A model generated the notes under the pieces. It was not told the origin of the DNA, did no database searches, and was given only the letters and a program-made list of their open reading frames with translations. A stretch of 64,000 nt of DNA, taken from assembly GCF_964355755.1 (NCBI RefSeq), contig NC_092671.1:33552304-33616303 (forward strand). The letters run 5' to 3'. This DNA is from Antedon mediterranea (Eukaryota; Animalia; Echinodermata). The number at the start of each line of letters is the position of its first letter. Position 1 is the stretch's first letter. Positions 399 through 58,428 of this stretch are shown here, one piece after another. The translations under genes were made by a program, and so were the position numbers.

Positions 399-400
399 AA

Positions 401-21139: not shown

Positions 21140-21299
21140 AAAGATAAAAAAATAAAAAATATATAAAAAAAAAAAAATAAAAAAAAAAAAAAAACAACAA
21201 TAAATAAATTTAAAAAAAATAAATAAATGGAAAATTATAAAAAAAAGAAGAAATAAACAAACAAATAAAACACTTTTAAGCAATTCATTTGTTCAGGGT

Positions 21300-21930: not shown

Positions 21931-21994
21931 AAATGTATTTACTTCATGTTTACTACGTTTCATTAACACAGCATTTAGTTTACAGGTTGGAAAG

Positions 21995-23050: not shown

Positions 23051-23079
23051 CCAAAACAAACATACACACAACACAGACA

Positions 23080-24310: not shown

Positions 24311-24398
24311 CAAAGACTAAACAATTCCAGATGCACGAGTCACCATTAAAGATTCCACATCACCTCAAACTAGAAAACTTCCACAAGTTAAATGGAAG

Positions 24399-27350: not shown

Positions 27351-27443
27351 GTAACAAGTAACATTACAAATTGTTAATGACCCCATAGGCATGTACTCAA
27401 AGCCATGATTAATATTCTGTCAGCTCGACACGCACATGTTTTC

Positions 27444-27870
27444 AGGCATCTGCCCAGGCAGTGCCTGTTAGTTAGTATAAGGTTACAGGCATCTGCTCAG
27501 GCAGTGCCTTCTGTTTAGTATTATGGTTCCGGCATCTGCTCAGGCAGTGCCTTTCTGTTTAGTATTGAGGTTCAAGGAATCTGCTCAGGCAGTGCCTTTC
27601 TGTTTAGTATTAAGGTTACAGGCATTTGCTCAGGCAGTGCCTTCTGTTCAGTATTAAGGTTACAGGCATCTGCTCAGGCAGTGCCTTCTGTTCAGTATTA
27701 AGGTTACAGGCATCTGCTTAGGCAGTGCCTTCTGTTTAGCATTAAGGTTAAAGGCATCTATTTAGGCAGTGCCTTCCTGTTTGTATTAAGGTTACAGGCA
27801 TCTGCTCAGGCAGTGCCTTCTGTTTCAGCAATTAACGTGTTCTCGCCATCAGCTCAGGCAGTGTTTTCTG
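27444..27870 (+). repeat. Minisatellite, about 44-bp unit, about 10 copies, each with an internal hairpin
   Basis: Unit CAGGCATCTGCTCAGGCAGTGCCTTCTGTTTAGTATTAAGGTTA. Confidence 0.93.
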
Positions 27871-30800: not shown

Positions 30801-31489
30801 AGGCTGGAATGATTATGTTTCTGATCTGCATTCTGTTGCTCGTGAAGCCTTCTTATTATGGAGAACTCACGGCAAACCCAGGAATGGGCCCTTGTTTCAT
30901 TCTATGAAAATGTCTCGTTGGCGTTACGCAAGTGTAAACATAATGATCAACAACTGAGAGCTGATAAATTAGCTCAGTCTTACAGTAATAGGGACTAAAA
31001 AGGTTTTCGGGAAGGTGTTAAGCATATGAATGATACTAGAGCTAATACCTCTGAAGTTATTGATAATGTTAGTAGTGAATACAACATATGTAACCATTGG
31101 GCCAAACGTTATGATAATCTGTTTAACTGTGTGGATAACACGACTCATAAAGCATTTGTAGAGCAGACTCTAGAATACTGTCCGCCTGAGATTGGTATTA
31201 ATGTCACTCCTGATCTTGTATCTAATTGCATTGATAAACTTTCTGTAGGAAAATCACCCAGACTTGATGGTTTGGGTGGTGAACATCTTAAATATGGTAG
31301 TAAACGACTTAATATCCTATTGAGTTTATGCTTTAATGCTATGCTGTGTCATGGTCATGTAACTAAAGATCTTGTTAAAGTTATTCTAGTGCCGATTGTT
31401 AAGAGTAAATCAGGTGATATTACTAATAAGAATAATTATAGACCTATTGCTTTAGCGTCTGTATTATCTAAGGTGTTTTAATCTATTTT

Positions 31490-34400: not shown

Positions 34401-34507
34401 TATAAATGTTTATAGAAAGTATATTTGCTTTCTTTAATTTCTATTTGCTATTAACTAAAGTAGAATCGTTTTCTTTTATGCAGGTAATTATAGATTGATT
34501 GATTATA
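31490..34507 (-). mobile_element. 5'-truncated, decayed L1/Tx1-clade LINE
   Basis: KSPGTDGFSVEFFKVFW, NWRPISLLN, WSKRYLTPLGRLTIVKS, zinc motif CTFC..ETLPHLFVSC; A-rich tail at the left; 15-bp TSD GTTT(T/G)AATCTATTTT at 31475-31489 and 34508-34522. Confidence 0.9.
31826..32299 (+). mobile_element. Penelope-like element remnant with 91-bp inverted terminal repeats
   Basis: 31826-31916 is the exact reverse complement of 32209-32299; the internal ORF fragment WEATILTKEPKRKDRQIRESLHIRR...MNRDTG resembles the C-terminus of a PLE GIY-YIG endonuclease. Confidence 0.85.
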
Positions 34508-35064
34508 GTTTGAATCTATTTTGATCAGTAATTGCGGTAACTCACTGGAATTCAATGACTACCAATTTGCATTTAAAGCAAAGCACTCGACTGATACGTG
34601 TATCTTTGTATTAAAACATGTAATTGACTACTACAATAGAAATGGTAGTCCAGTTTTTGCCGGCTTTCTAGATGCCAGTAAGGCTTTTGATCGAGTCAAT
34701 CTCTGGATTCTTTATAATAAGCTCATTAACAATGGTATTAATCTTTGTATTGTTAAATTGCTTAAATGTTGGTATGAGAAACAGAGTTTTGTGATACGTT
34801 GAGGAAACTCTGTTTCAAAAGCATTTACAGTATCTAATGGAGTTAGACAGGGTGGGGTTATGTCCCCTCTCCTTTGTAACATATATATCAGTACTCTTAA
34901 TTGTAGACTAAGTGGTTTGTGCCAGGGTTGCCAATTTAAAAACATTATCTTGAATCATCTTATTTATGCGGATGATCTTGTTCTACTTGCCCCCTCAGTT
35001 GCTGGTCTCCAGCAATTGGTACATGTTTGTGAAGAGTTTTCGCAAGAGAATGATGTTTTATTTA

Positions 35065-38000
35065 TTTTATTTATTTTACTTATCTTTTTGCGTCATGTAC
35101 ATTATATATAATATTAATTTTTCAACTGTATAATGATTGATAGTGTAACTTCGAATCTACCTAACTTTAATCCGTTAACTCACAGCCTTGATAATTTTGA
35201 TGAGCAGTCAGCAGATTTAATCGACCAATTAAACTCGAAATCAACTACTCTTGATAACTGCTCATATTATGATTGTGACAAGTTTAATTCAACCTTCACA
35301 AATGATTCCAATACTAGCCTTTCCCTTTTTCATCTGAACATTAGAAGTATTAAAACTAAAGTAGACCCACTCATACCTCTGTTAGACAATTTAAGCATTG
35401 ATTTCTCAATAGTAGGTCTCTCAGAGACATGGCTACATGATAACTCGCAAACTTCCTCCTTACATAACTATACTTTTTTCTCTAAAAATAGGTCAACTAG
35501 AATTGGTGGTGGTGTTGCTTTATTTGTTCATAATGATATAAATGTTAAAATCAGACATGACATCTTGCTTCCTCTGCCTTATGAATCTCTATTCATTGAG
35601 CTTAGTAACCATAACAAAAAATCTACTGTTGTCGGTATAATATACCGTCCACCTGGAAGTTGTATTGACCATTTTTCTGAATCACTAGACAGTGTTCTAA
35701 GTAAAATTGATTCTGAAAATAAGAAGTGTCACATTATGGGGGATATAAATATTGATCTAATTAAATATCATAATCATCCCAGCACTGGAAATTATCTTGA
35801 TCTACTTCTTTCACATTCTTTTTATCCCACTATATCGAAACCTACCAGAATAACTACAACAACTGCCTCTCTAATTGATCACTTTTATACCAACCAAACT
35901 CATTTTAATATTTCCTCCGGTGTTCTTATTACAGATATTTCTGACCATCTTCCCATTTTTCAACTTATTCATGATGACCAATGCCATTATAACAAATCTA
36001 CTGATAGACAGTCTCCCCGCATACAGGATGTTAATGCCTTTTGTAATGACATCATAAACGAAGATTGGTCTGAAGTTTATAACGCCACACCTAATCTCGC
36101 TTTTGACACATTTTTATTAAAATTCTATAATATACATGACAAACATACCACCTATAAATCTGTACCCAAAACTAAAATGTCTAAACAACCATGGATGTCG
36201 CCTGGTCTTAGAAAATGTAGTAAAAAAAAGCAAAAATTATACAAAAAATTTTATCACAAGATCCTAATCGCAAACTAACATACACAAAATATAACAATAT
36301 GTTTAATAAGCTTTGCCGCACTGCAAAAAAGAATTATTTTTCTTTACAATTTGACACGGTCAAAGGCAATCTTAAAAAAAACCTGTTCCATTATTAATTC
36401 TGTTTTATCCCCTAATAAGTCAAGTCGAAACTATCCCAAACAACTTACAATAAATGACAATACCATTACATCTGAAATAGATATTTGTAATCAATTTAAT
36501 AAATATTTTTCTCAAATTGGCACTTCACTTAAAAATGCAATGCCAGATTCCTTAATTAATCCAAAATCATATCTTCCTGATCCCCTTCTCCATTCTTTCT
36601 TTATAAATCCTGTAACTGAACATGAAGTGATGATAATTATAAATGATCTTGATCCAAAGAAAGGAGGTGGCGATGATAGAGTTACACCATACGTTATTAA
36701 ATTGATTTCTCCATTCATTATTAATCACCTTACGTTCTGTATTAATTCATCTTTTTCTTCAGGTAGTTTTCCCAATTATTTAAAGTTAGCAAAAGTTATT
36801 CCAATTTTCAAGAAAGGTAGACAAGATATACTTTCAAATTACAGACCCATTTCACTACTTAGTACCTTTTCCAAAATCATTGAAAAATTAATGTACTCCC
36901 GTCTCTATGAGTTCCTGGATTGCAATAACGTACTCTTTGCTCATCAATATGGTTTTCGTAAATGTCATTCCACTTCACATGCAATCCTTGATCTCATAAA
37001 TAATGTAACAAACTCCTTTGAAAAAAGAAAATTTTTGTTATCTGTCTTTGTCGACTTATCCAAGGCCTTCGATATTATAGATCACCGTATACTTATTAAT
37101 AAACTTAACAATTATGGAATCAGGGGTATTACCTTAAACTGGTTTCGTAGTTACTTAAGTATGAGGAAGCAATATGTCTCGTTTGGTAATTGTATGTCAC
37201 CGGAGGAGGAGATGACACGTGGGGTGCCACAAGGGTCGGTTCTTGGCCCTCTCTTTTTTTTAATTTACGTAAATGACTTATCCAGAGTCAGTGACACCCT
37301 CCATGTTATCTCCTTTGCTGATGACACTACACTATTTTTTTCTCATTCAGATTTAAAAGTTTTATTTTCTATAGTTAATAATGAATTGTCAAAATATAAT
37401 GACTGGTTCATCTCAAATAAACTCCTTATAAACTCCATGAAAACCAATTACATTCTTTTTCATACACAACGTCAATCGTTAGACCTTACTGATTACAATA
37501 TATTTATTAATGGAGATAACATTAAACAAACGTCAGAGACTATGTTCCTTGGTGTTTTAATCCAGGAAAACTTGAGATGGACCAGTCATCAGAATCATAT
37601 TGCAAATAAAATTTCTAAAACAATTGGGATTATAAATAATCTTAAGCACACTTTTCCCCGGCGTATCCTTCTTTCATTATATAATTCTTTAATTTTACCT
37701 CATCTTTATTATTGTAACATTATTTGGGCTGCTGACTATCCATCACATCTCGATAAACTTAATAAGCTGATTAAGCGTGCTATTAGAAATATTACTTGTA
37801 CGTCTCGCATTACTCCATCTGAACCTTTATTTTATGAACTTAAGTTACTGAAGTTAGGTGATATACATAAATTGCAAAGTGCCTCTTTTGTCTTTCAATA
37901 TTTTTCTAACAATCTTCCTTCTCCCATGATGAATTTATTTAACACTGCTGATTTCAACCATGGTCATAATTTAAGAAGTACTGTTCATAAGTTTCAGTTA

Positions 38001-38395
38001 ACTATTCCTTTTGTTAGATTAACTAGTTCTTCTCACTTTATTTATGTTTCTGGCCCTAAAATTTGGAATCAATTAGATACTAGTATTGTTAACTCTTCCT
38101 CTCTCCCAACTTTTCGTAAAAAACTTAAAAGTAATTTGTTATCATTGTACTCAATCTAGACCTTCAAACTGTTTTTGTCATGACTTTTTTTTATTTTATT
38201 TAATAATTATATACAAATGTATTTTTTTCTTTTGTTTATGGGTCTTGCGTGACAAGTATTCTCTTCTTGCAAGATCCTCTATTAATGGTATTTTTTGTAT
38301 TTTCTCATTATAAATTATCATTCTTTTTTATTGTATTGTTATACCATTGATAGAAACTAATAAATGTTGAATTATTATTATTATTATTATTATTA
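35065..38395 (+). mobile_element. L2/CR1-group (Crack-like) LINE with near-complete ORF2
   Basis: APE ORF 35133-36278 (HLNIRS, LSETW, IYRPP, GDINID, SDHLP); RT ORF 36351-38159 (NYRPISLL, QYGFR, DLSKAFD, GVPQGSVLGP, FADD); AATAAA plus (TAT)n tail; TTATTTA at both junctions. Confidence 0.92.
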
Positions 38396-39288
38396 TTATT
38401 TAATGATAAGAAATCTTTTTGTATGTGTTTATGTCCTCGTACTTGCAAACTTGAAGGTAATTCTATTACTAAACTTTTTGGTAAAAAAGTTGCTTATGTT
38501 GAGAATCGTACCTACCTTGGTCATATTCTTATGTGTGATTGCAGTGATGAGGCTGACATTCAAAGTCAATACAGATCTTTATGTATTAGAAGCAACTCAC
38601 TCAATCGCAAATTTATGAAATGCTCTACCAATGTTAAATGTTGTCTCTTTAGATCTTACTGTATTAGTATGTATTGTGCAGCCCTTTGGTGTAACTATCG
38701 TATGAAGAATATTAGATCTCTTAATGTATGTTACAATAATGCTCTGCGCCGTATACTTAATGTCTCTAGAAGTAGTAGTGCCAGTGCAATGTTTATTGAA
38801 CATGGTGTCCCTTCCTTTAATGAGTACATGCGAAAATCTACCTATAGTTTTATGCAACGTATGTTGAATAGTGGTAACGTCCTTGTTGCTTGTGTTTGCA
38901 AAATTCTCCAAAATGTATTTTAGATGGAGAAGCATTCTATATACTTAAGTTTAGAGTTTACAATTTTTTTTTTTTTTTTTCTGATTATACGTTTATTAAT
39001 ATGGATGATATTTCCGAAATAAAAAGAAATTGAAAAAGCAATGTCAGTTCTAAGTAATAACAATACAAGGACTTCACACGATTAGAAGTATAGTATAAGG
39101 CTCTATTTATTCAAATTGTTTGCTCAGTAATATACTATTAAAAATGTTGGCAAAAAACAAAATGTTTTGAACATTAACCAAAACACAGTTCGTTCTTCTG
39201 GTAGATACTTGTAGGTATGTTTGATGCCACTACAGTAGGCCTACTTGTGTGCAATGCTAGACTACCGTTTGCCATGTCCACTTCATCT

Positions 39289-42200
39289 TTATCCTGGCCT
39301 CGGCCCTCTTACTGCTGATTTATGTGAAAAAAGAAGATATGTAATCATCTACATGTTAACACATGTTTATTTCTAACAATTTGCCTGACCTCTTACACAT
39401 ACCTAATAACAACATGTTGCTTTATTGACTAATGTGATGACACACTAGAGGTCCAGTTCAACCTAAAGCATCCCATATGTGTGGTTACCACCAAATCGTA
39501 GTTAATTGCATTAAGCATTATACTTACCTCCGTATCAGTTTCAGTAATAGAATATTGTGTATTGTACTGCAAATATTATGATGAATGCAATTTATGTACT
39601 TAGTAATATTTGAATACTTTAGTGGTTCTTATGTAACCTTTTGATAATTATTATAAACTATGAAATTGCTAAATCTGTCTAGTTACTTACGCCCTAGTTC
39701 ACGGAGGATTCGGTCACCATCTAAATATAGAAGGGAAAAAATGCATGATGATTACAAGTTCATATAATAATAATAACATAGTAAAGTCTTCATAGTAACT
39801 TACAACGATGTACGCTTTAAATGTTAGTACGTTGTATACAATTATTATCTCAAACAGCATTGTAATTTAAATAACACATCACACAAAATGAAAGCAGTAA
39901 ACCACACGATTGCACAGCAATCTGCAACTGATATCAAATGTATCTTGCCATGAACGGTACTCACCTAATCCTCGACGGATTCTGTTATAAACTGACATGC
40001 ATTCTGTTGAAATATTAACAGAAATTATAGAAATTATAAAGTAACAACATTATTACTTATTATATAGTAGGCCTAATAACAATAATAATACTCCCAATAT
40101 ATATTAATGATAATAGTTTATTGAACTATTGATTATCGATCAAAGAACTATGAGAAAAAACATCTAATTATATACTCATAAATCTCCTTTGATATAATTA
40201 TTTTGGTTACAATATTAGACAACCAGCTCTAACACAGCAAAGGGTATACCACGCTTGATTTGTTTAAAGTTGTACCATTTCAGTTATACGGTATTTAAAT
40301 AATGATAATGATACTAATATCACTTGAATGTACTGTATATAGCACAAATCCCACTAAGTACATAAAACCTAAAAGGAAAATCCAGTTTTTAAAGGACCAA
40401 TACCAGTCAACGTTTAACACGAATCTATTTTGAGAACTGAGAGGGCGTGGTACAAACCTTTTGGACAACGCTGCTCTCGCGTCTCCAATAATCATTCAGT
40501 GATATATTTCTAATCTCCTTTTTCATCACTTTTCAGTTACCATATTTTGACAATATTTTCCATAACCGGCCTTTTCATATAAACCACAGTATATAGGCCT
40601 ATACTCATAATTGAATATACTTCAGTAATAAAGGAAATAGTAATATTTATTAACAATGTTATTTGCTGTCATATTAGGCCACAGCTTTGTTTCGGGTATG
40701 CACTACACAGTATGGCGTCACAGCGACGGGGGTCTAGGCCCCGAATAATATATCTGACATTAAAGAATGTTTATAGAGATTTGAGACTAGGAAAGCCAAT
40801 CAGTTTCATTTTCCTTGTATGAGTGGAGAAGACAATGGCCACTAGCACTGGAAATTGTTCTTTATTGATAAACTATTGATAGCTACACCTAAACCTTAAA
40901 AGTTTAGAGTCATCGTCTAGGCCTACTAAACGATTGTATACAGCCCTACCTTAAAATAAGATAATGGATTGCGCAAAGACATCAATAAAGTGCAATATGT
41001 AGAATAAATTAAACAATAACACGCGTTGTTTATACAACTTGTACATTTTACTTACCTTTAGTGTTACCATTCAGGTCAATACATTCTTCTTCCCATGGAT
41101 CTGAAATATAAAATACAAAGATATTTTTTAATCCGCATCACACTAAAGAGTAGAGAAAAGAAATATCGAGTAATAATATAACAAGAAGAGGATATAACAT
41201 AGCAAAACAATAATTTTGACACAGCAAAGTCATTATTGGTACATTCAAGGGTAAATAACATATAAATATGCGACAGAAACCAATACTTACACTGACATTG
41301 CCCAAATTCAGCCTGAAATAAAAATACGGCTAAACACACAATGATCAACGTTTGCCATCTCCTGAAAAAAATGTGTATGTATACCTGTAGTTTTTTTTAT
41401 AAATCTAACCCACATAAACTACAACAAACAAAATATTTCTAAATGTGATATGTAAATAAATCAAAATTAAAATATCTAGAAGCATTTGTGTTCACATAAG
41501 TACCTTTTTCGATCACAAAATGTTATATAATATTACTGTTAAAGTTCTTGCTGATCCACCAATCACCAATAATGTTATTTTAAGTACTCTGTATCTTGTG
41601 ATTTTTATTATTTATAAAAGACGCAATAAATGAAATGAATTGGAAAATTGCGTCAAAGCATAATAAGCAAGTAAGGGTAGATTTGATAAACATTTTGTGT
41701 CAAGCTATTCAAAAGTTAATGAACAGAGGTATTCTAAATAACACTTAGTAAACGGATGCCAGGTTTTGGCCAGAAATCATATTCTTATTCCCGTCGCATT
41801 ATGCCTTCTTATTCTACCAAATTTCCGAACACTAGACCTATCATAATTTAATCTTTTGTGACGATTACAAAGACCACCTAACGACAAAGACTCAAATCCA
41901 ACTCATAATATGAGTAGGATCAAACCCAGTACCGTTTGATTACGATCATGCGGGAAATTACCTCACGATGATATTACACAGTTTAAGGTCAAAAGATTAG
42001 GCCTATATAAAATATTTTGATATTATGTTTAAATCCTTTAATAAAATGGTATAGTTGTATTATGTGTGATAAATAAAGACATTTTTAACATAATGTTGCT
42101 TTCAAGATTTACATGAATTATATGATAGAATAACAAAATAATATACATGCAAAGCTAAACCCAAATCGCTCAATCTATAGTTAATACAAATTTATAAAAA

Positions 42201-42294
42201 AGTGTCTTCAGATTTATCATCGTGGTTCCACCATTGCAAGATTACAGTAGTCAAATTATTATATGTCAATAAATACTTACAGTTTAGCTGACAT
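39289..42294 (-). CDS. Micro-exon gene B: predicted 74-aa secreted peptide
   Basis: Exons 42294-42281, 41361-41291, 41100-41056, 40003-39965, 39720-39691 and 39314-39289 give MSAKLRWQTLIIVCLAVFLFQAEFGQCQYPWEEECIDLNGNTKECMSVYNRIRRGLDGDRILRELGPVRGPRPG-stop. All donors are GTAAGT or GTGAGT. TATAAAG at 42360-42354; AATAAA at 39111-39106. Confidence 0.78.
40427..40761 (+). mobile_element. Diverged copy of the 5' leader and start of the SGNH ORF of the YR element, inside an intron of gene B
   Basis: Aligns with about 20298-20625 (ATTTTGAGAACTGA.AGGGCGTGGTACAA...ATGTTA..TGCTGTCATATTAGGCCACAGCTTTGT). Confidence 0.85.
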
Positions 42295-42347
42295 GATGAT
42301 AGCGGACATCAGTTAAATAAGTAATATTGTATCTTGTATGGTTGCTG

Positions 42348-44903
42348 TATAGACTTTATAGACACACTTTGATATTATACATAATCCGATGCTTAAATAT
42401 CGTTTTAAACCTGTATAATAAATTTACGACTGAAAATGTTTAATTACAAAGGTTTTCATAATTATTTGAAATAAAATTTACAATATCACTATAGTCGTTA
42501 TTGTTATTATTCGAATATAATTCAATAAAACTCTGCATAAAAATATATCGTTTTAAACCTGTATAATATATTCACGACTGAAAATGTTTAATTACAAAGG
42601 TTAAACAACTATTTTCATAATTATTTGAAACAAATTTTACAATATCACAATAGTCGCTATTGTTATTATTCAAATATAATTCAATAAAACTTTGCATAAA
42701 CGAATAAAGTATGATTGAGGTGTTTTATTGTCTATGGAATGATAATTAATTGCACCTGTTGTATTTTCCAAATACAAGTCGAGAAATTGTACTGAAATGT
42801 ATACGTCAATAAATTTAGGTAGATCTGGTTAATAATTTTCTTCTGGATATTCCAAGTTGATATGAAAATTGGATTATTTAAACTGTCGTTTGTCATTGGT
42901 CAATTCGCTTGCGTTGCGTCCTATAAGTTTGAAACCAACTCGAGAGAGTAAGTTTTATATATTCTGAACTTGGATCGCCAAAAAGAAGATTATAACAAAA
43001 TACTATGATTGTTGTTATTATTATCAATAAGTGAAATAGAGAAAATGGTTAATCTTGTTTGAATCTTAGAAATTTAAAGTGTATGCATACATAACATTTC
43101 CATCTGTCAGATGCTGTAATGGACGAACTTGTTGGAATAATATACCTGATGAAATTCGTGTTCTATCTAACAACAAACTTTTTTCTTCTAAATAAAAAAA
43201 AAAACAACATTATTTCTAGATACTATTTACAACGTTTACGTTTTCTGAATCTGAACTGTTTGATCTGTGTACCGGTGTGAGTGTGGGTGTGTACCTGCTT
43301 GTGATTGCGTTTCAAAGAAATTAACAAAGTTAATATATGGCTCCTCCAACTCAGGCTTGCATTTTGGATGTGACTACCTTTTTTCAGCTTTCTATTTTTT
43401 TAATTATTATACATAATTATTTCGAGATAGAAATTTTGACATTCTTATATGATTGTCTGATGAAAATTCTAAATTGTATGTTTGTTTCCTTTTTGAAACC
43501 TTTTTACCTTTCATTGTTGTTATTGATTTTGTTTCTATCTTTTCTGTTTTAGAAGGAAATAAATGTTTATTTAGATTTGATTTGATGGAATTATTTCATT
43601 ATAGTTGAATCGGTAGTAATATTTATATAGACTTTATAGACACACTTTGATATTATACAGATAATCCGATGCTTAAATATCGTTTTAAACCTGTATAATA
43701 AATTTACGACTGAAAATGTTTAATTACAAAGGTTTTCATAATTATTTGAAATAAAATTTACAATATCACTATAGTCGTTATTGTTATTATTCGAATTTAA
43801 TTCAATAAAACTTTGCATAAAAATATATCGTTTTAAACCTGTATAATATATTCACGACTGAAAATGTTTAATTACAAAGGTTAAACAACTATTTTCATAA
43901 TTATTTGAAGCAAATTTTACAATATCACAATAGTCGCTATTGTTATTATTCAAATATAATTCAATAAAACTTTGTATAAACGAATAAAGTATGATTGAGG
44001 TGTTTTATTGTCTATGGAATGATAATTAATTGCACCTGTTGTATTTTCCAAATACAAGTCGAGAAATTGTACTGAAATGTATACGTCAATAAATTTAGGT
44101 AGATCTGGTTAATTATTTTCTTCTGGATATTCCAAGTTGATATGAAAATTGGATTATTTGAACTGTCGTTTGTCATTGGTCAATTCGCTTGCGTTGCGTC
44201 CTATAAGTTTGAAACCAACTCGAGAGAGTAAGTTTTATAAATTCTGAACTTGGATCGCCAAAAAGAAGATTATAACAACATACTATGATTGTTGTTATTA
44301 TTATCAATAAGTGAAATAGAGAAAATGATTAATCTTGTTTGAATCTTAGAAATTTAAAGTGTATGCATACATAACATTTTCATCTGTCAGATGCTGTAAT
44401 GGACGAACTTGTTGGAATAATATACCTGATGAAATTCGTGTTCTATCTAACAACAAACTTTTTTCTTCTAAATAAAAAAAAAACAACATTATTTCTAGAT
44501 ACTATTTACAACGTTTACGTTTTCTGAATCTGAACTGTTTGATCTGTGTACCGGTGTGAGTGTGGGTGTGTACCTGCTTGTGATTGCGTTTCAAAGAAAT
44601 TAACAAAGTTAATATATGGCTCCTCCAACTCAGGCTTGCATTTTGGATGTGGCTACCTTTTTTCAGCTTACTATTTTTTTAATTATTATACATAATTATT
44701 TCGAGATAGAAATTTTGACATTCTTATATGATTGTCTGATGAAAATTCTAAATTGTATGTTTGTTTCCTTTTTGAAACCTTTTTACCTTTCATTGTTGTT
44801 ATTGATTTTGTTTCTATCTTTTCTGTTTTAGAAGGAAATAAATGTTTATTTAGATTTGATTTGATGGAATTATTTCATTTTAGTTGAATCGGTAGTAATA
44901 TTT
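42348..44903. repeat. Recent tandem duplication of about 1.28 kb covering the upstream region of gene B
   Basis: Units 42348-43625 and 43626-44903 are near-identical; each has an internal duplication of about 150 bp. Confidence 0.95.
42354..42360 (-). promoter_or_regulatory. TATA box of gene B
   Basis: TATAAAG about 60 nt upstream of the ATG, the same position as the gene C TATA box. Confidence 0.6.
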
Positions 44904-45499
44904 GTGATATAGTTAGGGAATTGGATAGACACACCTTAACTGGTGAGAGCTTTTTAATATTGCTGTTGTCTATCCTCGGCATTGTATATTTATTCTGTCG
45001 AAATGAATAAAACAATATTTAAAAAAAACTAAAAAACGACGTGATGCGTCTGCCACTTATTTTTTCAAAAACTCATCACGTCCATTACCAGATAATTCTG
45101 CATCTTAGGTTCATATCATATTTGGTAGATAGTTATTTGCAATCTTACACAATCAAAATGGAGATGCAACAATTCTCGAAATTTGAAATCAATAGTTGCA
45201 ACATGATTTGCAAATGTTGTTGTTGTTGTGTCTGTATCATTTATTAGTTTAAATTGTAAAAATGCATAAATAAAGGTAATCTTGGTATATTTTAATATAG
45301 TGCAACTCCTTAAATGTTTTGTTGCAGAGGTTTTTATCTGTTTTCCAATTCTGTGTGATACAGGAATCATTTGCTTAAGATTGAAATTTCAAGCTCTGAC
45401 TGTAGATTGAAAAAAGTGTTTTGCATATGCCGACCGGAATGTGACACTACTACAAACCTAGGGTGAAATGTATTATATGAAGTTTCTTCGGTCAAAGGG

Positions 45500-46210
45500 T
45501 CTGTTACAACCGCTGATGTAAAAAAACGCCAGCTAATATCGAAACAACCACTAATGTAGAACAATCCACAATGTAGTAACACAAATTGCCTCCCAACTAA
45601 TGTAGTTACTATTGCCAGCTAATTTATAACATATTATATATTTAACAAACATTAGAAAATCATGTGCAAATGCATCTCTCTCACAAACGACTGATAGCCA
45701 CCACCACCTCTGTTAATGGAACGCTTCTCATAATTGACCACCTTAAGCGATCACACCTCTCGTCAGAAAAAGGTGGTCACTTACGAGAGTTGGTTGTCCT
45801 TTAACAGAGGTTGTCACTTAAGAGATGGCCGCGTTTTAAAAGTCAGTCGTTTACGAGAAGGGGATAGACTGAGAGCAGCTAAGTAAAGAAATGCATTTTC
45901 ACATGATTTAGACATAGGTTTGTAAAATATATAATATTTTCTGCATTAGCTGGCGACAGTAACTACATTAGGTGGAAGGCAAATTCCGTTACTGTATTAG
46001 CTGTTGACCGTTCTACATTAGCTGGTGTTGATTTTTATTTACTTTCATTTTATTTTAATACTTACATTTATTTATAATCAGCGTATGCTGACAATCAAGG
46101 GCCCTCTTACTAACTAAGCTGTTGGTGTTTCTACATTAGATGGAGGTTTTACTACATTAACGGTTGTTTCGACATTTGCTGGCGTTTTCTACATTATCGG
46201 TTGTAACAGG
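45500..46210. mobile_element. MITE-like element
   Basis: CTGTTACAACCG..GATGTAAAAAAACGCCAGC at the left is inverted as GCTGGCGTTTTCTACATTATCGGTTGTAACAG at the right. Confidence 0.65.
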
Positions 46211-46575
46211 GGCTTTTTTTTTAAATATCCCCACAACAAAACAAATTGATCTGCGTATGAAGAAAATCCTTAGTTTATGCCAGATATATTTAAAAAACAT
46301 GTCCGTTTAACCGTAATGTTATAAATAAATTCCTAAACTAGTGTTGAATAATGACAACAAACATGTTCAAGTTCTGTGTGTATTTAAGTAAACAAGAAAA
46401 ACATCTATATTCAAAGCATGAACAAGGTCTTACATCATTCCGGGTCATTTTCATGGGAATGAATACTAATTATTATAATTGAACAAAGAAAGTCACCCAA
46501 ACCGAGCGGATCCAAATGGAATATTGAAGTGTTATAATATCTCCATCGTCAATCTCACTGTGGCTGCTGCGACGA

Positions 46576-49500
46576 CTAAACATTCGGAATACCTATAAAT
46601 AATCGAAATATTTAAATATTATTAATTGTATGAAGCCATATTTAAATAAAAAAAGTTATGATTTAAAGTAATACGTTAGCCTATCATAGTTAAGTAACCC
46701 GCAAACTCCGTGTTCTTTGAGGTTTAAAAGGACTACAGTAAGCCATGTGTTCCCCAGATGGAAAGTCTCCTTAACCTTTATTTGTTTTAAGACTTTTTAA
46801 AACTTACCCTCTTTCCGAGATTTTGGTCTTGCTATTACAAAATTAAAAGAAAAACCCCACATTAATCGAACAATTTGTAAATACACGAACTTATAATATT
46901 ATTCTATTTAGTTCTATTGAACAAAAAAGTTATACTCTGTATCTACTGCACGTTGTGCTTTTTGTAAACATTTTCTACCACGCCTGAGGTTGTTGAATGA
47001 TCCTCATTTGAAAATCAACCTATAGCGTCGTCTATATCTGTTATATTCCGAGTTCAAAATTGGAGTACTGTCACGTTGAATGACATAGTTTTCAGGCGTA
47101 GACTTTGACAATGATTCAAGATGGGAGCAGATAATTAATTGTATAACATTTTACTTTTGTAGGTGTGATATAATTCAAATAATACATGTAAACTGTATTG
47201 TAATAATTTATATAAAATAATTTTCTCAATCTTTCATTATGTGTATGCTACTGTATTACAAACATGTTTAGTATACTTACTTTCAGAGTTTATTGAACGA
47301 GTAGGTACTGAAACAAAGATCAGAAGAAAATAAATACATAATATTTATTTCAGGGTAGATAAGCAAGGTATGGTAAAAAGCCTATTTAAATACAATACTT
47401 ACATTCATCCCGACGAAATCGTTTCTTTACTGAAAAATACAAACACGATAACTTAAAGTTCAAGTGAAAGATTATGCATAATATTATAGTGTGTTTTATT
47501 TGGCAAGGGGTCTATTTGTTAAAATTATGATAACTACGACCCATTTAGGCCATACATTTTTATACGATGTAGTTATAGATCAGGATGTATTGGTGAGGGG
47601 CAGGAAGTAACGCTGGTATTTTCCGCGATGTAGGCCGTTTAATACGTGACGAGTTTTAGATTGCACACACTAGTTAAAAAATATTTAAATACAATACTCA
47701 CATTCATTCCTACCATATCGTTTCTTAACTGAAAAATACAAACACGATAACTTACAGTTCAAATGAAAGATTATGCATAATATTATACAGCTTTTAACCT
47801 GACTAGTGGTTTAAGCGACTGCCTTAAATAGCATTAATTAAATAATAGAGAAAGCCTATTTTTAAAGTAATCACAATTTGAATTAAATCAATCGTTATTC
47901 ACTTAAAAGAACATTAAAAACAAACAAAAAAAGAACCAAAATAATGAATTCACTTAAAAGATACAGTTAACCCAATGACCAAGGGTTGACTAAATATTTT
48001 TTTAAAGACACTTTCCTTGTCATTTTTTGACGTTTTGTAAAATATGCATATAATATATTACTATATGGTTATAACAGGTTCCAAAGGACAATTTGAGTGT
48101 CAAATGGTAAAAATGTAATATGTGACATTAAAATGACACATTTAAAAAAAATCAAGGTGAAAATTTATCTTTAATGTTTTGTTTTCAACAAATTTTTTGG
48201 TTAAAGTAAGTAACTGATAATTATGTGACAATAAAATAGAGATAAGCAAAGATCGACTCTTGCTAGTCTCAAAACAATATTATGTATTACTATTGTAAAA
48301 AATTAGGCATGTGGTATATGTAATGTTGTGTCTAAGACTTACTACTTTCCTGACATTGCCCAAATTCAGCCTGGAATAAAAACACAACTAAAAACACAAC
48401 GACCAACGTTTGCAATCTCCTGAGAAAAATATATCTGTATGTTTAAAGCTCTGTCTACACAAATATCAAACTGGTTTGACGTGTCCAAATATCGTATCGT
48501 ATTCATGAAAGGGGACTAACTTTAGTCCTGGACTATCTCTGAAAATTAGTCCTAGACTATCTAGAAATGGTATTCATGAAAGGGGACTATCTTTAGTCCT
48601 CCACTTAACCTGGGCCGATTGCAATAAAGGCCTTAACCGCAGTCTTAGACTTAAACCCAAGATGAAACCTTTAGCAACGAGGGTCATAGATTTAAGACCA
48701 TTGCAATAAGAAGTTTAAGCATAAGATTTTCAGAGCCGAGGACTTAGATTCCAAGCCTCCTCCAGGCAGGCTTACGCTAACAACACGACGCGAGCGCTCT
48801 TAAAGGGGGATTCTGGGTTTAAAATTGCTTTTAAATATCGTTTATTTATTAAATAAAAAATATTATAACAATATAGACATTTCAGAATGAAGAAGTAATA
48901 ACGAGAAATTAAAAAAATTAAATTTCATATACATTTTAGGGTAAATTCATGGAAAGTCTGTCTTTTAGCAGCTTAGGGAAGCTCATTAATATTCATGAGA
49001 TATTCACAAAATCACGTCACCAGTGGATTCCAAACTCGCGACGTCATGTACGTTGTGTTTGTCAACTAATTTACATCTCTCTCCCCTGTCAAACGACGAC
49101 CACCATTGTGATCATTGTGAAATACATTTTTTGTAGATTTTCTAAGCTAGGCCTAAAGTGTAATAATAACAGTAGTAGCATATATTTATTTGACATTTAA
49201 TGAAATAAAAAATTTAGTACAGATACGGAGTCATAAATTATACTATTTTTATACCTCTATAGTACAGATCGTATTATCGGCTTCACGTACAATACTACTC
49301 TAGGCCTAGCCTAATAATAATATGGGCGAGAGCCATTCTGACTAGGGATTCCATGCCACGATGGCTACGTTAAAACAATGGGGCCCATGGGCCTAGCTAG
49401 TCTACTACTAGACGATTGGCCCATAAATAACAAAACCCATCCTATCAACCAAACTCTTAAACAATCTAAACCTAAAACATTCTACAAAATCGGCTGTAAA

Positions 49501-52500
49501 TATTGAAGCAAAACAAGGTCCGATCGCCGTCCACACGTATGGTGTCCCGATCGTCTAAGTAGGCCTAAAATAAATAGGTTTAGTTTACTCTCCAAAAAAG
49601 CGGATACTCATGCATCAAGCAAGTAGACCAGGTAGTAGGAAGGAGACCTAGCCGATCCGGCCGAGTTAAAAATTGAGCTAGCTAGTGTAGTAGACCCTAT
49701 GCGAATTGATACTACCAGGCCTTTTACTATAGAGGCTGCACTACACAAATATTCCAACTCTCTCATTCGAGCTATATTATCTATACCATTCCGGTAGGTC
49801 GAGTCGACTTTCAATCAAATACTGTACATCGTTCATGTTGTGATTATAGACGGGGTGTACACTCGACTCGACCAGTTTGGTATTGTTGTATCTGCTTATC
49901 ACGTGACGATGCCAGACATGGGCAGCAGAGAGAGCACGTGTATCGTCGTCTCGCTCGATCCTCAGCAGGAATGTACAGTATACGTTACGCTTCATTGATT
50001 TTGATTTTTCCCTAAGTCGGTGCGAAAATCGGCAAACGTAAAGTGCAAACATATCTAATTTTTCACTGTTTTGATGAATTTTCATAAAAAATTGACTTTA
50101 TAAATGGGAAGACCGACTAAAATTACATCAGATAAGTATAATTTTACAAAATTAATTGATATGGTTTATGATAACGAGTCGTCGGAAGATGGACCATTTC
50201 ACGAATTTCCTATTTTGTAACCACAGTGTGATTTTGCCGTAGCTGCACTTGTAATCTGGCCTGATTTCACAGCCTTCGTTCTGCTTCACTGGGCGCTTAT
50301 ATAAATTGAAACTTTTACCGTTCAAGAGACAAACAAATATATTTTACATTTTTTACTATTCATTTTAAACCCGGAACCCCCCTTTAATTTCATGGGAAAA
50401 TTAACTTCTTTAAGTACTGCTGTGAATTGATTTATGATACTAGTGTAGAAAAGGGGTATTGAACTATAAGACATGTGTATTATTATTTTTATCTACCAAT
50501 TGTTTCAATAGATAAAATCTATATAGGCCAACACCTACTTGACGATCAATCACTGTTAGCGGTCAACAACCGCACCAACAAGCTGTGCGCATATTCTCCA
50601 TATAATACGCGGCCTAGTGCTACACCATTTTGACCAAGAAAAGACTACATATAGTAGCATATTTAAAATTTATTTTGTTGAAATATTTATTAGTAAACTT
50701 TAAAAATGTATTAGTTAACCAATATTTACTATCACATTACATATAATTTTGTTGCCAATATTTTTAATTATTTTCTAAAATCTCCTAGTATTTACCTAAT
50801 CTTAACGCTATTGAATAAGCAGTGTGTCCATTAATGCATTAACATGGCCTCAATATGTCCTACCGAGGAGCTTGTCGCTACTCCTTTTTGTTAAATTACT
50901 CTATATGCACTTGTTGGTATAGCGCCCTTATTTGTCGGTAACTAAAGGCTGGTTGGATTGTTTGAAATTCTTTAGTAACTAAGACCGCTATATTGCAATT
51001 GACTTTGCTGAGAGGCTTAACTAAGACTTTCGCAAGGGGCTTAGGACTTATATCTAAGCCTAAGACAAAGTCTTGCAATCCGCCCCAGGACTAGTTAGTC
51101 AAGGTTCCATGGATACCATATCAATGATAGTCCAGAATTATCATTAGTCCTGGACTAGATAGTCCAGGACAAAGGATAGTCCAGGACTAAAGATAGTCCC
51201 ATTTCATGAATTGCAGTGATATGACATCATCATGTCCATATATGGGAACATTGCATTTTTGGTTTGTCACAAGTTTGATAGTGTAGACAGAGGTTTAATT
51301 AAATAGTTAAAACAGTTCAGTTTAAAAAAAATTAGAATCAATATTGTTCACATACTACAAATATTTACTGAAAACTGATTTTAAACCTTATTAAACTAGA
51401 ACACGGAAGGACCTTTTTAGGAACCTGCATTCCAGCATAAACGGCTATCATCATTCTGATATGTCATGCTTTTTTAAATTGTAGGTTTAAGATATATTTG
51501 GTTAATGTTTGTGTTAATGTATTGTTCTATTTCGCATAGCAATACATATTACAAATAAAAAGCTACACAATATTGTATTTTACGTGGCAAACTGGAACAA
51601 AATGACAGCACCATCGCAAAACAATTTAAAACCTGTGTATAGAACGTATCAGATTTTGTAAATCCACAGTGCGTGGTTTTGTTACATTTTTTGGAATAAA
51701 GTTACCTATATATATAGGATTGCGTCTTGTAATGCAGTAAGGTATACAGTGCAAATATGTCAAGAAATGCATTTTTTTATCTTAAATGTATTACCATTAC
51801 TTAATAAATTGCAAAAAATACGTCCCCATAGGCCCTATTGCAATACCTTTTGAGTAAGTTGGAAAAGACATTCTACTCGATATAACTTTTTAGGTTTCTA
51901 GTTTACCGACAAGATGAATGCGTTGTTAATTGAGACGAACCGACTTTACATTACTAATCAGCGTATCATAATTTAAAGTAAAATATAGTGTAATATTAAT
52001 TACATGGCATTATGTAAATAGGTGAACGTGATTGGTTGAAACTGTATCACATGACTACCGCTGCGAGGATCGTAAATGGTATATGAGGTGAGGTGAGTCC
52101 CGTGTTCTCTGAACGTAGGGGAATGAGCTGTTAGGAGCTCATTGTACTAAGCCTCGGCATTATGTGGTAGGGTGGCCAGTTCCTTTCCATGCCGCCTTTT
52201 TTCTCCCTAGTATTTTCAACCAGGTACTCATTTTACAGCTGAGTGAACTGGGAGTTGTCGGGCATTGAACCCGGGTCTATCTGTACGACAGTCAAGTGTC
52301 CTAACCACTCGGCTATCCAATGGTATATATGATATTGAATTGAAAATTCTCGAGTACGATGATATTGACTGTGTAATTTTCGTGTGGCAACATTCGCGTT
52401 TGGCGATAAATAAACAACAAAAGTCATCTACTGAGACTTGAACTCGCGATGATGTCCATCATCAAAATACAACGTTTCACCCGTTGCGCCACGCAACTTG

Positions 52501-53099
52501 CTTAAAGAAATTAATCAATGCATACATAGCGCTCTAATTTGTTATTAGCCCTCCCTAGATGTGATGAAAGGCCGTTTTTGATTGGTTAATACTCACGGTA
52601 TGAACCTGGTACACGCGGCGCGCTGAACATGCGGTGATTCGGCTCCTTGAAGAAGACGAATTATTAATTATTCGGCCTACTTGATAATAATATTATTATC
52701 ATTAATGTAGGCTCGTTGATGAAAATTCTTCCGTCAATTTAAATGACCTAGGCCTAAGTGAATATTTAATTGCCAAGAAATCATTAATTAGTAATTATCT
52801 GTATACCATTATTATTCTTCGCAGGCTTATTACATAAAAGAGGCCTAGCTACACCCGACCCAGCAACAGTAGATATTCAACTGGTTGTTGGCTATGTAAT
52901 ATAAAAGATATCGCCTTTTATATCAGTAAAATATAAGATTTGACATCCCCTTGTGAATGATGTAATGTTCTTGAGAAATATATTTCTCTCAGCTAGCGCT
53001 ACGGGAAATATATTCCCTCGGGGATGTCAAATCTTATATTTAACCTCTAAGCAGGCAATATATCTTATAATATAAGCCTACTTACAGTTTAGCTCCCAT
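46576..53099 (-). CDS. Micro-exon gene C: predicted 70-aa secreted basic peptide
   Basis: Exons 53099-53086, 48419-48343, 47728-47702, 47429-47403, 47307-47281, 46831-46808 and 46592-46576 give MGAKLRLQTLVVVFLVVFLFQAEFGQCQES-IKKRYGRNE-LKKRFRRDE-LPTRSINSE-TRPKSRKE-GIPNV-stop. Internal exons of 27, 27, 27 and 24 nt are all phase 1-1. Confidence 0.82.
48447..51295. mobile_element. Four-layer nest of non-autonomous TIR elements in intron 1 of gene C
   Basis: Concentric inverted pairs: CTCTGTCTACAC / GTGTAGACAGAG; ATTCATGAAAGGGGACTA / TAGTCCCATTTCATGAAT; CCTGGGCCGATTGCAA / TTGCAATCCGCCCCAGG; innermost element 48804-50383. Confidence 0.8.
48804..50383. mobile_element. Kolobok-like non-autonomous DNA transposon
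   Basis: TTAA TSD at 48800-48803 and 50384-50387; 21-bp TIR AGGGGGATTCTGGGTTTAAAA versus AGGGGGGTTCCGGGTTTAAAA (purine-purine start). Confidence 0.75.
52085..52318 (-). mobile_element. tRNA-derived SINE
   Basis: Minus-strand head GGATAGCCGAGTGGTTAGG (A box) and GGGTTCAATGCCC (B box); (CTCAC)n tail; 10-bp TSD AATGGTATAT at 52075-52084 and 52319-52328. Confidence 0.82.
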
Positions 53100-53161: not shown

Positions 53162-54110
53162 TCGTCACCCCAATACATTAACATTTTAAAAGGTTAAATC
53201 AACACAACAATGAGATATAAGTAATATTTTATACACGAATTTAAAATATTTTTTTTGCATGTGATAATCAATTTTGTCAATTGTCGTTATTGTTATTAAA
53301 TATTATTCAAATGTAGTTACATAAAATAGTGCCTATATTTAATTTGTGCTTATTATTATATTGTGTATGGAATTAAAAGAATGTATGATAATACACACCT
53401 GCTGTAAGGAATTGATTAATATATAAAACATGAATAAAATGTTTAAACAAGATTATTCAAAAAAACAGTTTTATATGTGTAATTTTACAATTTTCGTTAT
53501 TGTTATTATTCGAATATCATTAAATAAAACAATGTTTATGAATAATTTTTAATGTATTGTTGACGTGTTTTTATTATGTTTTTATTGTTTAAAATGGGAT
53601 TAATTATTTTATTAATTTACACCAGTTGTCTGTCAAAATGTAATATTAAATACATGTTTTGATACGATGATGATCAATAGTATTCTTTTCTTAATTCTTC
53701 AATCCAAAGCTCTCCATTTACTCATTTCTATATATCTCATTTTTGTATTAGCAATAGTATTATTGTTCAAGTATACTTCTACCTTTATATCTTATTGCAT
53801 ACTGTAGGGCATGTAGTACGGTGTATATAAATAGAAAAAAGGCTCATATTCAGTTACAACTGTTTGTATTTTCTGTTTTGCCACCTTCGAAATTTACCAT
53901 TTTTTATTTATCCTGAACAAGACTGGATTACTAATTTGGTAATATTCTTTGTACTTCTGTACGCGGAGCACATCGATATTTCACCGTAAAATGTCCAATT
54001 AAATTGTTTTAATATAAGAAAAAGTTGAAAGTATTTTGTTGCTCTTATACTTTACATGCATTAACAAAGTCAAGTTTGACACAATTTGATCTGCATATCA
54101 CGTGACTTTA

Positions 54111-54922: not shown

Positions 54923-56819
54923 GGATTGAATCAATTTGTTTAAAGGTTTTTGTTAAAATAATAATAATATTATTTTGATGTTACAAAATAATTGTTTTCT
55001 TTGGCAGAAATCAGCCTGGCATGTGTAAATATGTTCGTCTACGGATGTAAAACTACAGGTCAGGAAAACAGTCAAGATTTCAATTCTAACGTATGGCATG
55101 TATTGTGTAAATCTGATCAAGAAGGATATTTTGAATTAAAGCAGCGTTGGGTTTACCTACCTGTCCAACATATTTGATTTATGTACAATTAACCAAATAT
55201 TATATTTAAAATTCATGCCTGTACCTGAGCTTTAAAACAATAAGGATATTACAGTAAGTTAATTATAGTTGGACTTTTTTATTGTTGCGACTTACTTCCA
55301 GTGTTTATTCCTTTAGGAGGTGTTGAAAAAAAAACAAGAATAATAATATGAACGTATTGAAGTGAATAATTTTTTTTCATTTTTTTATATCGACGTCGAC
55401 AAAACCATGTTTTAAAACCGTGGTTGCGTTAGGTTTGACCTAACAAAGGGTTCAGATAACACTTTTAGCCCTAGCTAATTTTTTCTAGGTGGGATCAGGG
55501 AAACGACCCGCAATATTTTAAATAATATTTACTGAGTCTAATTATTTTACAACTACCAATTTTTTTAGATCCTTAAACCATGGAAAATTTGTCAATGCCG
55601 GTGTCATGAGCAGCTCCCTCTATATTTTATAAATAAACTTGTGCATGTTCCTGTAGCTACCCATAAAAAAAGGATTAAACAGCCTGATACGAAAAGCCAA
55701 AAAGATTGAAAATAAAAGAAATATCATAAGTACGTAACACTTTTATAAATACCAGCATGTACCTGACTGAATCTATTTAATATGTTTAAAAGGGCAGATT
55801 AAAAGTTTTATATTTTTAGTTAAACAAGTATAAAACAAAATTGGTTGCTGGTTGTAAGAACTGGATAGAAATTTAAAACATAACAAGCTTCTGGCATTAA
55901 AAACACTTACAATAAAATATTATAAAACTTCAAGTAAAATACAGCACAACATTATTTAATGCATGCACATTATTGCAAATATTAGGTTGTTGTACCTACA
56001 TCTAGTTATCTACTCACCTTCATTCAGACAGATTCTTTCATTATCTGAAATAAGTAAAGTGACATGGAGTAATAAAGAAGGTTATTCAATAGGCCTACGT
56101 TCTTATGATTAGTACCAAAGTTTGTATATCATTACAGGTGAAATTAATCTATTATATACATTTCGTTTACAAAATTCTATTGATTGTCTTTTTTTTAATT
56201 TACGTTTTTATGACCACCAATTTCTGTCAAGTTTCCATACATCATTTCTGACAGGGGACAGAATCAATCGTAATTGGCATACATTTCGCATCTTACCATT
56301 CTCATTTTCAGTACAGACTCAAATAATACTATAAATAATAAATACAACAATACTACAAATACAACAACTAGGCATAAAGTTAAGAAGTTTCTGTGAATAG
56401 AATATACGGTACACATTGCCAAAAGCAATAGTTACACAGATAAATAAAAACAAGTATGCTTAATCATAAGAAAAAAATGAGTAAATAATACAATTAATAG
56501 CTAATTTTAAATATATAGGATTAATTTACGTTTCATATATTTTCATAATATTAAAAAAAGAAGATCAGCTTTATGATATTTCGTCAAAGATCGGTTGGTG
56601 ATTGTATTAGGAAATAGAGTAAACAGGCGCATCGATAAATAGATTTCAATAATATAAAAATTGTAGAATGTTATTAAAAAAAATATAACCGATGATAAGT
56701 TTTAGGATGTTATAATTTTATAATAGTAAATATTCAAAGGAAAATAAAATGTAATAAACTATATAGTGACAGCATACAGTGACTTCATTACCAATCTGTT
56801 TAGAAAAAAAGATAACCGG

Positions 56820-57730
56820 AATTGTTTTCCAGTGTGGTGGGTGTACCGTAAAAAACATATAAATATGCTAGAATCCGTTCAGAGGAGAGCTACCTGCATG
56901 ATCTTAAAGAAAGGTTATTTTAGATCAACATTATATAGATAGAAGAAAGGGGCTAGGTCTAATGTCAATAGAGAATAGGCGTGATTTCTTAAACATGACA
57001 TTCATTGCCAATATAATAATTTCTCCACGATCTGATTTTATGAGTGAATATGTTGATTCTTTTTTAGTTAATAACCGACACCTATATATACTCACCTTTC
57101 ATCATGGTAGAGCTCGTACTGATGCTTTTAAATACTCAGGATTAGTACGGTTTCCTAAAATGTTTTCAGAACTTGGTGCTACGATCAGAAACAATCTTAT
57201 TGAAGAGTCGTTTTTTAAGTTTAAACACAGTTTAGAGCAACATTTTACAGATTTTTTAACTTTTCATATTTTTATTAACATGATTGTACATACTTTGAAT
57301 TTTTAACTTTTTAACTTTTATACAATGAGAATTTTTTACTTTTATACAATCAGAATTTTTAACTTTTATACAATCAGAATTTTTTACTTTTATACAATCA
57401 TAATTTTTAACTTTTATACAATCAGAATTTTTACCTTTTATTCAATCAGAATTTTTAACTTTTACACAATCAGAATTTTTAACTTTTACACAATCAGATT
57501 GTTCAGATAGCAATTGCATTTTTATTACACTTTTGTTAACATTTTATTATACCATATTTTTCTATGTATTTTTCTAAAGTTGTTAAATGTCGGTTTTATT
57601 GTATCGTTCAAGTTGACAGTGGCTGGTCAAGCACATCACAAGATGACAGTTTTATACTTTTGCTTTTCCGCTACTCCCCTGTTATACTTATATGTTTGTT
57701 TTTTTGCTATGTAGAAAGATTAAATATATA
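56820..57730 (+). mobile_element. 3' fragment of a CR1/L2-type LINE in intron 1 of gene D
   Basis: LESVQRRAT motif at about 56870 and a degenerate C-terminal ORF (56962-57306). Confidence 0.6.
57305..57500 (+). repeat. Minisatellite, 24-bp unit, about 8 copies
   Basis: Unit ATACAATCAGAATTTTTAACTTTT. Confidence 0.92.
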
Positions 57731-58428
57731 TTAAAATGAAGAATGTTCAAGTATCGGGAGTATATACACTAATAGTTATAACTTAGTTGAAATAGAAAAT
57801 GTTACATTAGGTTTGGGCATGGCAAACATGCTTGCGGTCAATATTTATCTAAAAATGTTTAGCCAAACGATATAATATTAGATAATAATCCTGTGAGTAA
57901 CTTCTAACTTTTTGGAGAAACGAAATCTCATGATAATAACCATGTATGTGTTAGCTTGGGAGTATAGGATATGCAACAATAACCTACAATGTACTTACAT
58001 TTTACTCGACATGATGATACAAGAATGCCGATGACAGCTTTAGATAAACAAAATAATAAAATAGTTTGAATAGTTTACTTTAAAGGAAGGGGTGAGGCTG
58101 AGAATATTATTTGAACGTTTCGTTTTCTGGATCGATAGTAATCAAAGAATAGATTATAAACAAGGACAGTCAAGTGGTGCGAGGCTTAGTTTTATTGAAA
58201 ACATTTTCAAAAAATGACCTCATGCACTGATTATAAATACAGTAGACATAGATATACTTTATTCTTCAAATGTAGGCAAAAGAGATTTTTGAAAATCGTG
58301 TCATTGTCGGTGTAAATTGTGGTAAAATGAAAAAAAGTATTTTGCATGTCTGAAAAAAAGTCCCGATCAGACCAAATAGCGTAAGCGATGCATGATGGGA
58401 CGGAATTTGATGCCAGTAAAATAATATA

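Follow-up and report, generated by a model that had tools for sequence, protein, structure and literature searches.

A duplicated 27-nt micro-exon in a gene family of predicted secreted peptides with a crinoid homolog

The window analysed here, a single stretch of 64,000 nucleotides with the base composition of AT-rich animal DNA, carries four tandem paralogous genes on its minus strand. Using a splice-site scan and a repeat search, we observed that all four share a 14-nt first coding exon, ending at 57999 (gene D), 53086 (gene C), 42281 (gene B) and 18899 (gene A). Gene C, which carries the duplicated exon of this study, has seven coding exons with a total of 213 coding nt, as listed below (predicted bin depths are from the model described further on; P0003 is one isoform of a homolog also described there).

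53086–53099, minus strand: exon 1, coding part (ATG, 14 nt, phase 2), from the repeat family and the splice scan; matches the N-terminus of the homolog P0003; outside the read-covered region.
48343–48419, minus strand: exon 2, 77 nt, predicted signal peptide (hydropathy 3.7; 21 of 25 residues identical to P0003); outside the read-covered region.
47702–47728, minus strand: exon 3, the upstream copy, 27 nt, phase 1-1, full codons KKRYGRNE; bin depth 14.4 observed, 14.41 predicted.
47403–47429, minus strand: exon 4, the downstream copy, 27 nt, phase 1-1, full codons KKRFRRDE; bin depth 12.9 observed, 12.91 predicted.
47281–47307, minus strand: exon 5, 27 nt, phase 1-1; bin depth 15.3 observed, 15.28 predicted.
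46808–46831, minus strand: exon 6, 24 nt, phase 1-1; bin depth 11.5 observed, 11.51 predicted.
46145–46592, minus strand: last exon, 17 coding nt, stop at 46576–46578, 3' UTR to at least 46145; contig record 21 lies on 46145–46589, with a 3-nt junction ambiguity.

Exons of 36 nt or less make up 64% of the 213 coding nt, and the symmetric internal micro-exons account for 86% of the part that follows the signal. The predicted signal peptide has a hydrophobic core of 3.7 on the Kyte-Doolittle scale over 11 residues, which is kept in the paralogs and in the homolog. Exons 3 to 6 encode a basic stretch (14 K/R and 5 D/E of 31 residues) that contains no cysteine. The product of gene C is likely a secreted peptide precursor of about 70 residues.

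Two repeat structures were seen around the gene. A high-copy inverted-repeat element (45490–46270), with very high depth in all four of the runs described below, lies directly behind the last exon, and the candidate polyadenylation signals of gene C fall within it. In the first intron (48500–51210) there are inverted arms of 34–37 nt, 2.6 kb apart, that resemble the ends of a DNA transposon.

Contigs of four runs (out of 14 listed, none of which is on record as RNA) were placed on positions 44800–47880. Run X5 is a second sample from the same coded organism as run X1, and is presumed to be RNA. Its record 21 is a 645-nt contig with a depth of 43.9, and the last exon of gene C accounts for 431 nt of it. 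When this contig was placed on 27 nt of each of exons 3 to 6, together with three low-depth contigs, the model reproduced seven of seven bins within 0.02, including two intron bins of zero depth. The 27 nt on exon 6, which has 24 nt, are expected, because the junction has the 3-nt ambiguity. The remaining 106 nt of the contig correspond, by length only, to exon 2 (77 nt) and 29 nt of exon 1. The letter changes in X5 lacked the kinds that are expected when one copy is placed at both sites, so both copies appear to be included, and unchanged. By this depth arithmetic, in rows that do not display the joints, exons 3 and 4 both appear to be spliced into one gene C transcript, unchanged in the second sample, and the contig depths point to one spliced form of the gene.

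The differences listed for X5 on 44800–47880 comprise one site each in the UTR and in an intron, plus 14 gap letters within the last exon; none was listed in the 105 nt of the micro-exons, in contigs that drop variants. Runs X6 and X13, from organism B, had no cover on exons 3 to 6, a gap that carries no weight.

The two exons lie in a block of gene C that occurs twice as a direct repeat, with an offset of 299 and a maximal length of 106 bp.

47383–47488, no strand assigned: copy 2 of the block, in gene order 59 bp of upstream intron, exon 4 and 20 bp of downstream intron; from the repeat search and alignment.
47682–47787, no strand assigned: copy 1 of the block, at offset 299, with 8 mismatches of 106 to copy 2.

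Each copy holds its 27-nt exon on the minus strand; the acceptor is tttttcag, and the donor gtaagt or gtgagt. Between the two exons 5 of 27 positions differ (47409, 47412, 47415, 47417 and 47428), and between the flanks 3 of 79 (47400, which is donor position +3, 47456 and 47464). Phase 1 is the only frame open in both exons. In this frame the Y/F, G/R and N/D changes are non-synonymous, AGG/CGG is synonymous, and the fifth change falls in the split codon. The sequence-only reading had described a repeat of about 105 bp around both exons, nearly identical flanks, five differences within the exon (six with the donor), and the F/Y, R/G and D/N replacements; on alignment the exon letters, the counts and the replacements were all reproduced.

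An assembly artefact, or a non-coding repeat that only resembles exons, could give the same picture, and the exon joints are indeed deduced from depths, in rows displayed without them. However, record 8 of X1 is a single DNA contig over 46299–47880 that bridges both copies with two other letters and no gap (X1 may be the very sample behind the assembly of the window), and the second sample has contigs on each copy. The fit of the depth model to all seven bins and the existence of an annotated homolog also speak against it. We consider this account largely refuted, and extremely improbable. Apart from one 12-mer, nothing in the spacer that separates the copies is repeated elsewhere in the window. 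The 106-bp tandem duplication of a symmetric 27-nt exon with its splice signals is certainly real, and beyond chance.

The three other genes of the cluster are as follows.

56018–58012, minus strand: paralog D, with the same first exon and a 27-nt exon identical at 16 of 27 positions to exons 3 and 4 of gene C.
39528–42294, minus strand: paralog B, with a two-exon signal region like that of gene C, then phase-1 exons of 45, 39 and 30 nt; predicted from sequence only.
11917–18912, minus strand: paralog A, with signal exons, then exons of 29+7, 33, 24, 30, 30 and 27 nt; likewise a prediction from the letters alone.

A hydrophobic second exon is conserved in three paralogs, with 78% and 45% identity to that of gene C. 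After the signal exon come phase-1 exons of 24–45 nt, with one 29+7 pair in A. The mature regions of the paralogs could not be aligned with one another. We also examined the codons in question in paralog B, where exon 4 reads CGT-CGA; the corresponding codons are CGT-CGG in exon 4 of gene C and GGT-AGG in exon 3. As exon 4 of B resembles exon 4 of C, it was likely exon 3 that took on the G and Arg-codon changes, and this would make exon 3 the derived copy for both. The polarity of the D/N change is ambiguous, since N-E also occurs in paralog D.

Several other features were seen in the paralogs and between them. The candidate signal exon of D (exon 2, 56297–56390) ends in phase 0, out of step with the next 27-nt exon, and D is possibly a broken copy or has a mis-predicted exon 2. 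In paralog A, a 29-nt exon (18259–18287) that carries a Cys-Cys pair and a 7-nt exon (17175–17181) are predicted as asymmetric exons that jointly restore phase 1. In A (11917–11943) and B (39528–39566) a small exon holds the predicted stop and has a further donor behind it, and an intron therefore seems to follow the stop. Just upstream of B (42330–44880) lies a tandem duplication of 1.28 kb, whose copies show 12 mismatches over 1252 aligned columns, with sub-repeats of 148 and 159 bp. An AT-rich motif related to this repeat recurs upstream of gene C (about 53270–53540) and at 17–72 of the window, and a shared promoter element is one possible reading of it. Several reverse-transcriptase- and recombinase-like ORFs, nested and broken and lying on both strands, separate paralogs A and B (20500–38950), together with 65-bp and 44-bp tandem arrays. 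At 268–5685 we found an LTR retrotransposon-like element, bounded by 131-nt direct repeats that are 99% alike; stops and frame changes break up its long ORFs, which have what we take to be gag-, integrase- and reverse-transcriptase-like motifs.

A profile built from the signal exons matched an uncharacterised protein of the crinoid Antedon mediterranea (XP_071941526–XP_071941529, P0001–P0004; E 7e-9). On this basis the source of the window is probably a closely related feather star. The N-terminus is the same as in the gene C family, and the signal exon is identical to that of C at 21 of 25 residues and to that of B at 17 of 23. This homolog is likely the ortholog or a near paralog of gene C. 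The mature part consists of consecutive modules of 9 and 10 residues and includes three to four near-identical repeats, and the four annotated isoforms of the homolog differ by whole 9- or 19-residue modules. Four identical 9-residue modules lie between cleavage modules, and the R-x-R-R-D-E modules are repeated and alternatively spliced.

Exon 4 of gene C matched the homolog module ending in RIRRDE at 5 of 8 residues (shuffle p 0.0035), while exon 3 gave no match (3/8, shuffle p 0.24) and exons 5 and 6 reached 2/8 and 2/7. Apart from exon 4, the mature exons of the two genes do not align. The contrast between the signal (21/25) and the mature part (at best 12/31) was significant, with orthology inferred (Fisher p=0.0009). 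At the level of the family, these alignments argue, the signal exon is conserved and the mature exons are not. The mature part of the homolog is acidic (16 K/R and 24 D/E of 72 residues) and has near-identical repeats, whereas gene C is basic and has one diverged pair. The predicted structure of the homolog has low confidence (pLDDT 0.44).

We also looked for further members of the family. Among proteins of near length, the signal-exon profile matched two of five candidates, and none of 153 longer proteins. A protein search with P0001 returned two matches out of 164, both being itself or an isoform. The representative protein library gave two matches, the query itself and the 3292-residue repetitive protein P0005, which was rejected as a likely composition match. 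None of five proteins had a Pfam match at the cut-off, the ESM Atlas gave no informative structure match (best feature score 0.77), and the exact 24-nt signal-exon pattern was absent from the metagenome contigs searched. No description of the family in crinoids was found in the open-access literature.

The sequence-only reading had proposed that the duplicated exon evolves at an accelerated rate, and we evaluated this with the alignment and the Fisher count that it called for. The exon (5/27) exceeded the flank (3/79) by a ratio of about 5, with p=0.024 at the best-scoring boundary. The p value was 0.034 with a gapped alignment and 0.040 when the flank was limited to sites beyond the splice signals (2/53). 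Flanks widened beyond the edge of homology gave p values of 0.07–0.48, which we set aside because they include non-homologous DNA. A scan over any 27-nt window gave p 0.28; this was also set aside, since the position of the exon is fixed independently by the splice signals and the contig. When divergence was simulated as uniform, with the boundaries trimmed and the splice sites kept invariant, p was 0.013–0.037. In six other duplicated blocks of the window, none of 525 same-shape frames with 6–10 mismatches reached this p (5 of 2307 among all frames), but the same-shape frames overlap heavily and are weak evidence.

The excess could also arise in the same gene, by the same duplication, with no selection at all. 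The redundant upstream copy would drift, and the excess would come from small numbers, one clustered event, constraint on the flanks or gene conversion across 299 bp. Several observations are in line with this. The pN of the exon pair (3/19, 0.16) is not above its pS (1/5, 0.20), giving a pN/pS of about 0.8 on 3 + 1 changes, and non-synonymous sites compared with the flank gave p=0.085. Four of the five changes lie inside 9 nt (chance 0.06), so that one complex event could be their source. The simulated p climbs to 0.024–0.037 when the splice signals are held invariant, and the changes in exon 3 erode the ancestral motif. The exon duplication of gene A (14751–14780 and 12768–12797, with a 30-nt exon per copy) had no excess, with 1/30 differences in the exon and 52/773 in the flank; pooling it with the gene C pair gave p=0.27. 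However, pure relaxation predicts the same rate in exon and intron, and the ratio of about 5, its persistence at non-splice flank sites and its rarity among the frames of the other blocks do not agree with this. Exon 3 also keeps an open frame, strong splice sites and apparent inclusion. We regard drift, the chief alternative for this pair, as a real possibility, though somewhat on the improbable side.

The duplication in gene A is about 870 bp long (12350–15250) and looks older; its sole exon difference is Tyr/His.

The excess in the gene C pair is thus nominal, single, post hoc and borderline, and gives a hint of accelerated evolution. Of the original proposal, the real and expressed micro-exons and the nominal excess stood; replication in a further paralog failed, and pN was not above pS. 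The uncharacterised crinoid micro-exon peptide family is a stronger result than the accelerated evolution of the pair.

The explanation that we favour, at even chances, is that a predicted protease-cutting module of a secreted precursor was duplicated; one copy has likely retained it, while selection for new peptide products likely altered the other. The weights given to this explanation and to three of its alternatives (drift, above, and the two that follow) belong to readings that are not fully exclusive. All internal exons of gene C are phase 1 at both ends and are frame-neutral modules, so that copying or skipping one leaves the frame intact; skipping itself is seen only in the annotated isoforms of the homolog. 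The predicted signal peptide would export the precursor, and convertases would cut after R-x-R-R in exon 4, freeing a C-terminal peptide of exons 5 to 7. In exon 3 the sequence is R-Y-G-R, in which R-x-x-R is kept, R-x-[KR]-R is lost and Gly-Arg is present. One of the cuts may become weaker as a result, or a new amidated terminus may be produced. R-x-[KR]-R is the stricter furin consensus. In pipid frog precursors RXXR is a common cleavage site (PMC3731216), and Gly-Arg is an amidation signal in myticalins (PMC5577615).

The basic motifs could alternatively be compositional, with the product left uncut and active at full length, as a short secreted protein that is charged and disordered (mucus, adhesive, skeletal matrix or cationic antimicrobial). 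With 14 of 31 residues being K/R in exons 3 to 6, basic pairs arise easily. The low-confidence model of the homolog would also fit such a protein, as would the exons of genes A and D, which contain no RXXR. Against this, R-x-[KR]-R recurs in exon 4 of C, in exon 4 of B and three times in the homolog, and it is the sole mature motif still recognisable between species. We consider an uncut product quite unlikely.

We also evaluated a precursor of the neuropeptide or pheromone type, in which the spacer and cleavage exons drift fast and a short repeated bioactive peptide is multiplied by exon duplication. Like the predicted crinoid neuropeptide precursors (PCNPs) of PMC9793003, gene C is from a probable crinoid setting and has a predicted signal peptide, dibasic and RXXR sites and possible amidation; its sequence contains a signal peptide followed by a dibasic-bounded peptide, which agrees with the criteria used there for a PCNP. 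The four identical 9-residue modules of the homolog, between cleavage modules, would also suit such a precursor. However, gene C has no conserved counterpart of this 9-residue module (best 2/8), and the mature regions of the paralogs do not align. None of five family motifs was present in the seven supplementary files of PMC9793003, and no peptide described in its section 36 matches; this comparison with PCNP1-20 covers that text and those files, in which line breaks could hide motifs. A precursor of this type is unlikely.

Returning to a duplicated cutting module, the family may be one of secreted, processed defence or recognition peptides whose mature exons turn over fast, a view that we hold to be evenly balanced. 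The most likely role would be that of an externally acting defence or recognition peptide, since a conserved signal, a variable mature part, tandem paralogs and exon duplication typify such families. The acidic homolog and the basic gene C fit no single antimicrobial mechanism.

The sequence-only reading had likened the exon pair to toxin and MEG genes, and we found no homology tie to a toxin family or to schistosome MEGs. Like gene C, schistosome MEGs have a signal peptide, coding regions dominated by very small symmetric exons, tandem clusters and exon duplication; they are described as apparently confined to platyhelminths and linked with invasion of the host (PMC4350168). Their mature parts evolve faster than the signal, a contrast that the identities of gene C to its homolog (21/25 and 12/31) may parallel. 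MEGs also make a pool of variants by skipping exons and have a dN/dS near or above 1; the corresponding observations here are the four module-skipping isoforms annotated for the homolog, the one spliced form deduced for gene C and the pN/pS of about 0.8. Gene C, at 64%, has most of its coding sequence in very small symmetric exons in the wording of PMC4350168. Its hydropathy also indicates a signal peptide. Gene C is below the stricter MEG cut-off of 75%. It differs from schistosome MEGs in that no sequence homology was found, in its probable free-living deuterostome source and in the predicted convertase sites in its exons. Platyhelminth homologs were not found, the sole real homologs found being crinoid. 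From these features, the family is not a schistosome MEG and would work in the manner of a cluster of modular peptide precursors, MEG-style or frog-type.

With respect to venoms, neither a conotoxin-type cysteine framework (exons 3 to 6 of C have no cysteine) nor a Pfam match was present; the Pfam Conotoxin model scored 12.9–13.4 bits against a cut-off of 25.1, with the N-terminal part of the homolog only. As judged from sequence comparison, the gene C family has no toxin family match.

The AMP/HLP cluster of pipid frogs is like the gene C family in being tandem, with a conserved signal, RXXR/KR/RR sites, tandem peptide exons and alternative splicing; its precursors have 75–96 residues and are derived from cck (PMC3731216). 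The exons of the gene C family are of 24–45 nt, unlike those of the frog cluster. According to PMC3731216, divergence between duplicated frog exons is quasi-zero, and selection on their cleavage sites is purifying and not positive, whereas the duplicated cleavage module of gene C has diverged. Myticalins of the marine invertebrate Mytilus, which the gene C family may resemble in these respects, are lineage-restricted linear cationic precursors with a conserved signal, a variable Arg-rich part, Gly-Arg and pseudogenes. They differ in having three-exon genes, the mature peptide in one exon, a conserved anionic propeptide and no micro-exon modules (PMC5577615). No homology of myticalins to gene C was found.

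A bolder proposal, which we think improbable, is that feather stars have an independently evolved MEG-like arsenal, in which micro-exons would be interchangeable processing modules and a positively selected exon copy would have turned a furin-type site into a Gly-Arg amidation site, giving a new amidated defence peptide.

If selection on the exons is false, what remains is an orphan gene for a secreted peptide with a tandem exon duplication of the ordinary kind. If it is true, this would be the first candidate family of fast-evolving secreted effector peptides for crinoids, and the MEG design would have appeared anew in a free-living deuterostome, where the units being shuffled are exons with cleavage sites. 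As each module carries its own intronic clock, the creation of peptides by exon duplication and selection would become directly countable.
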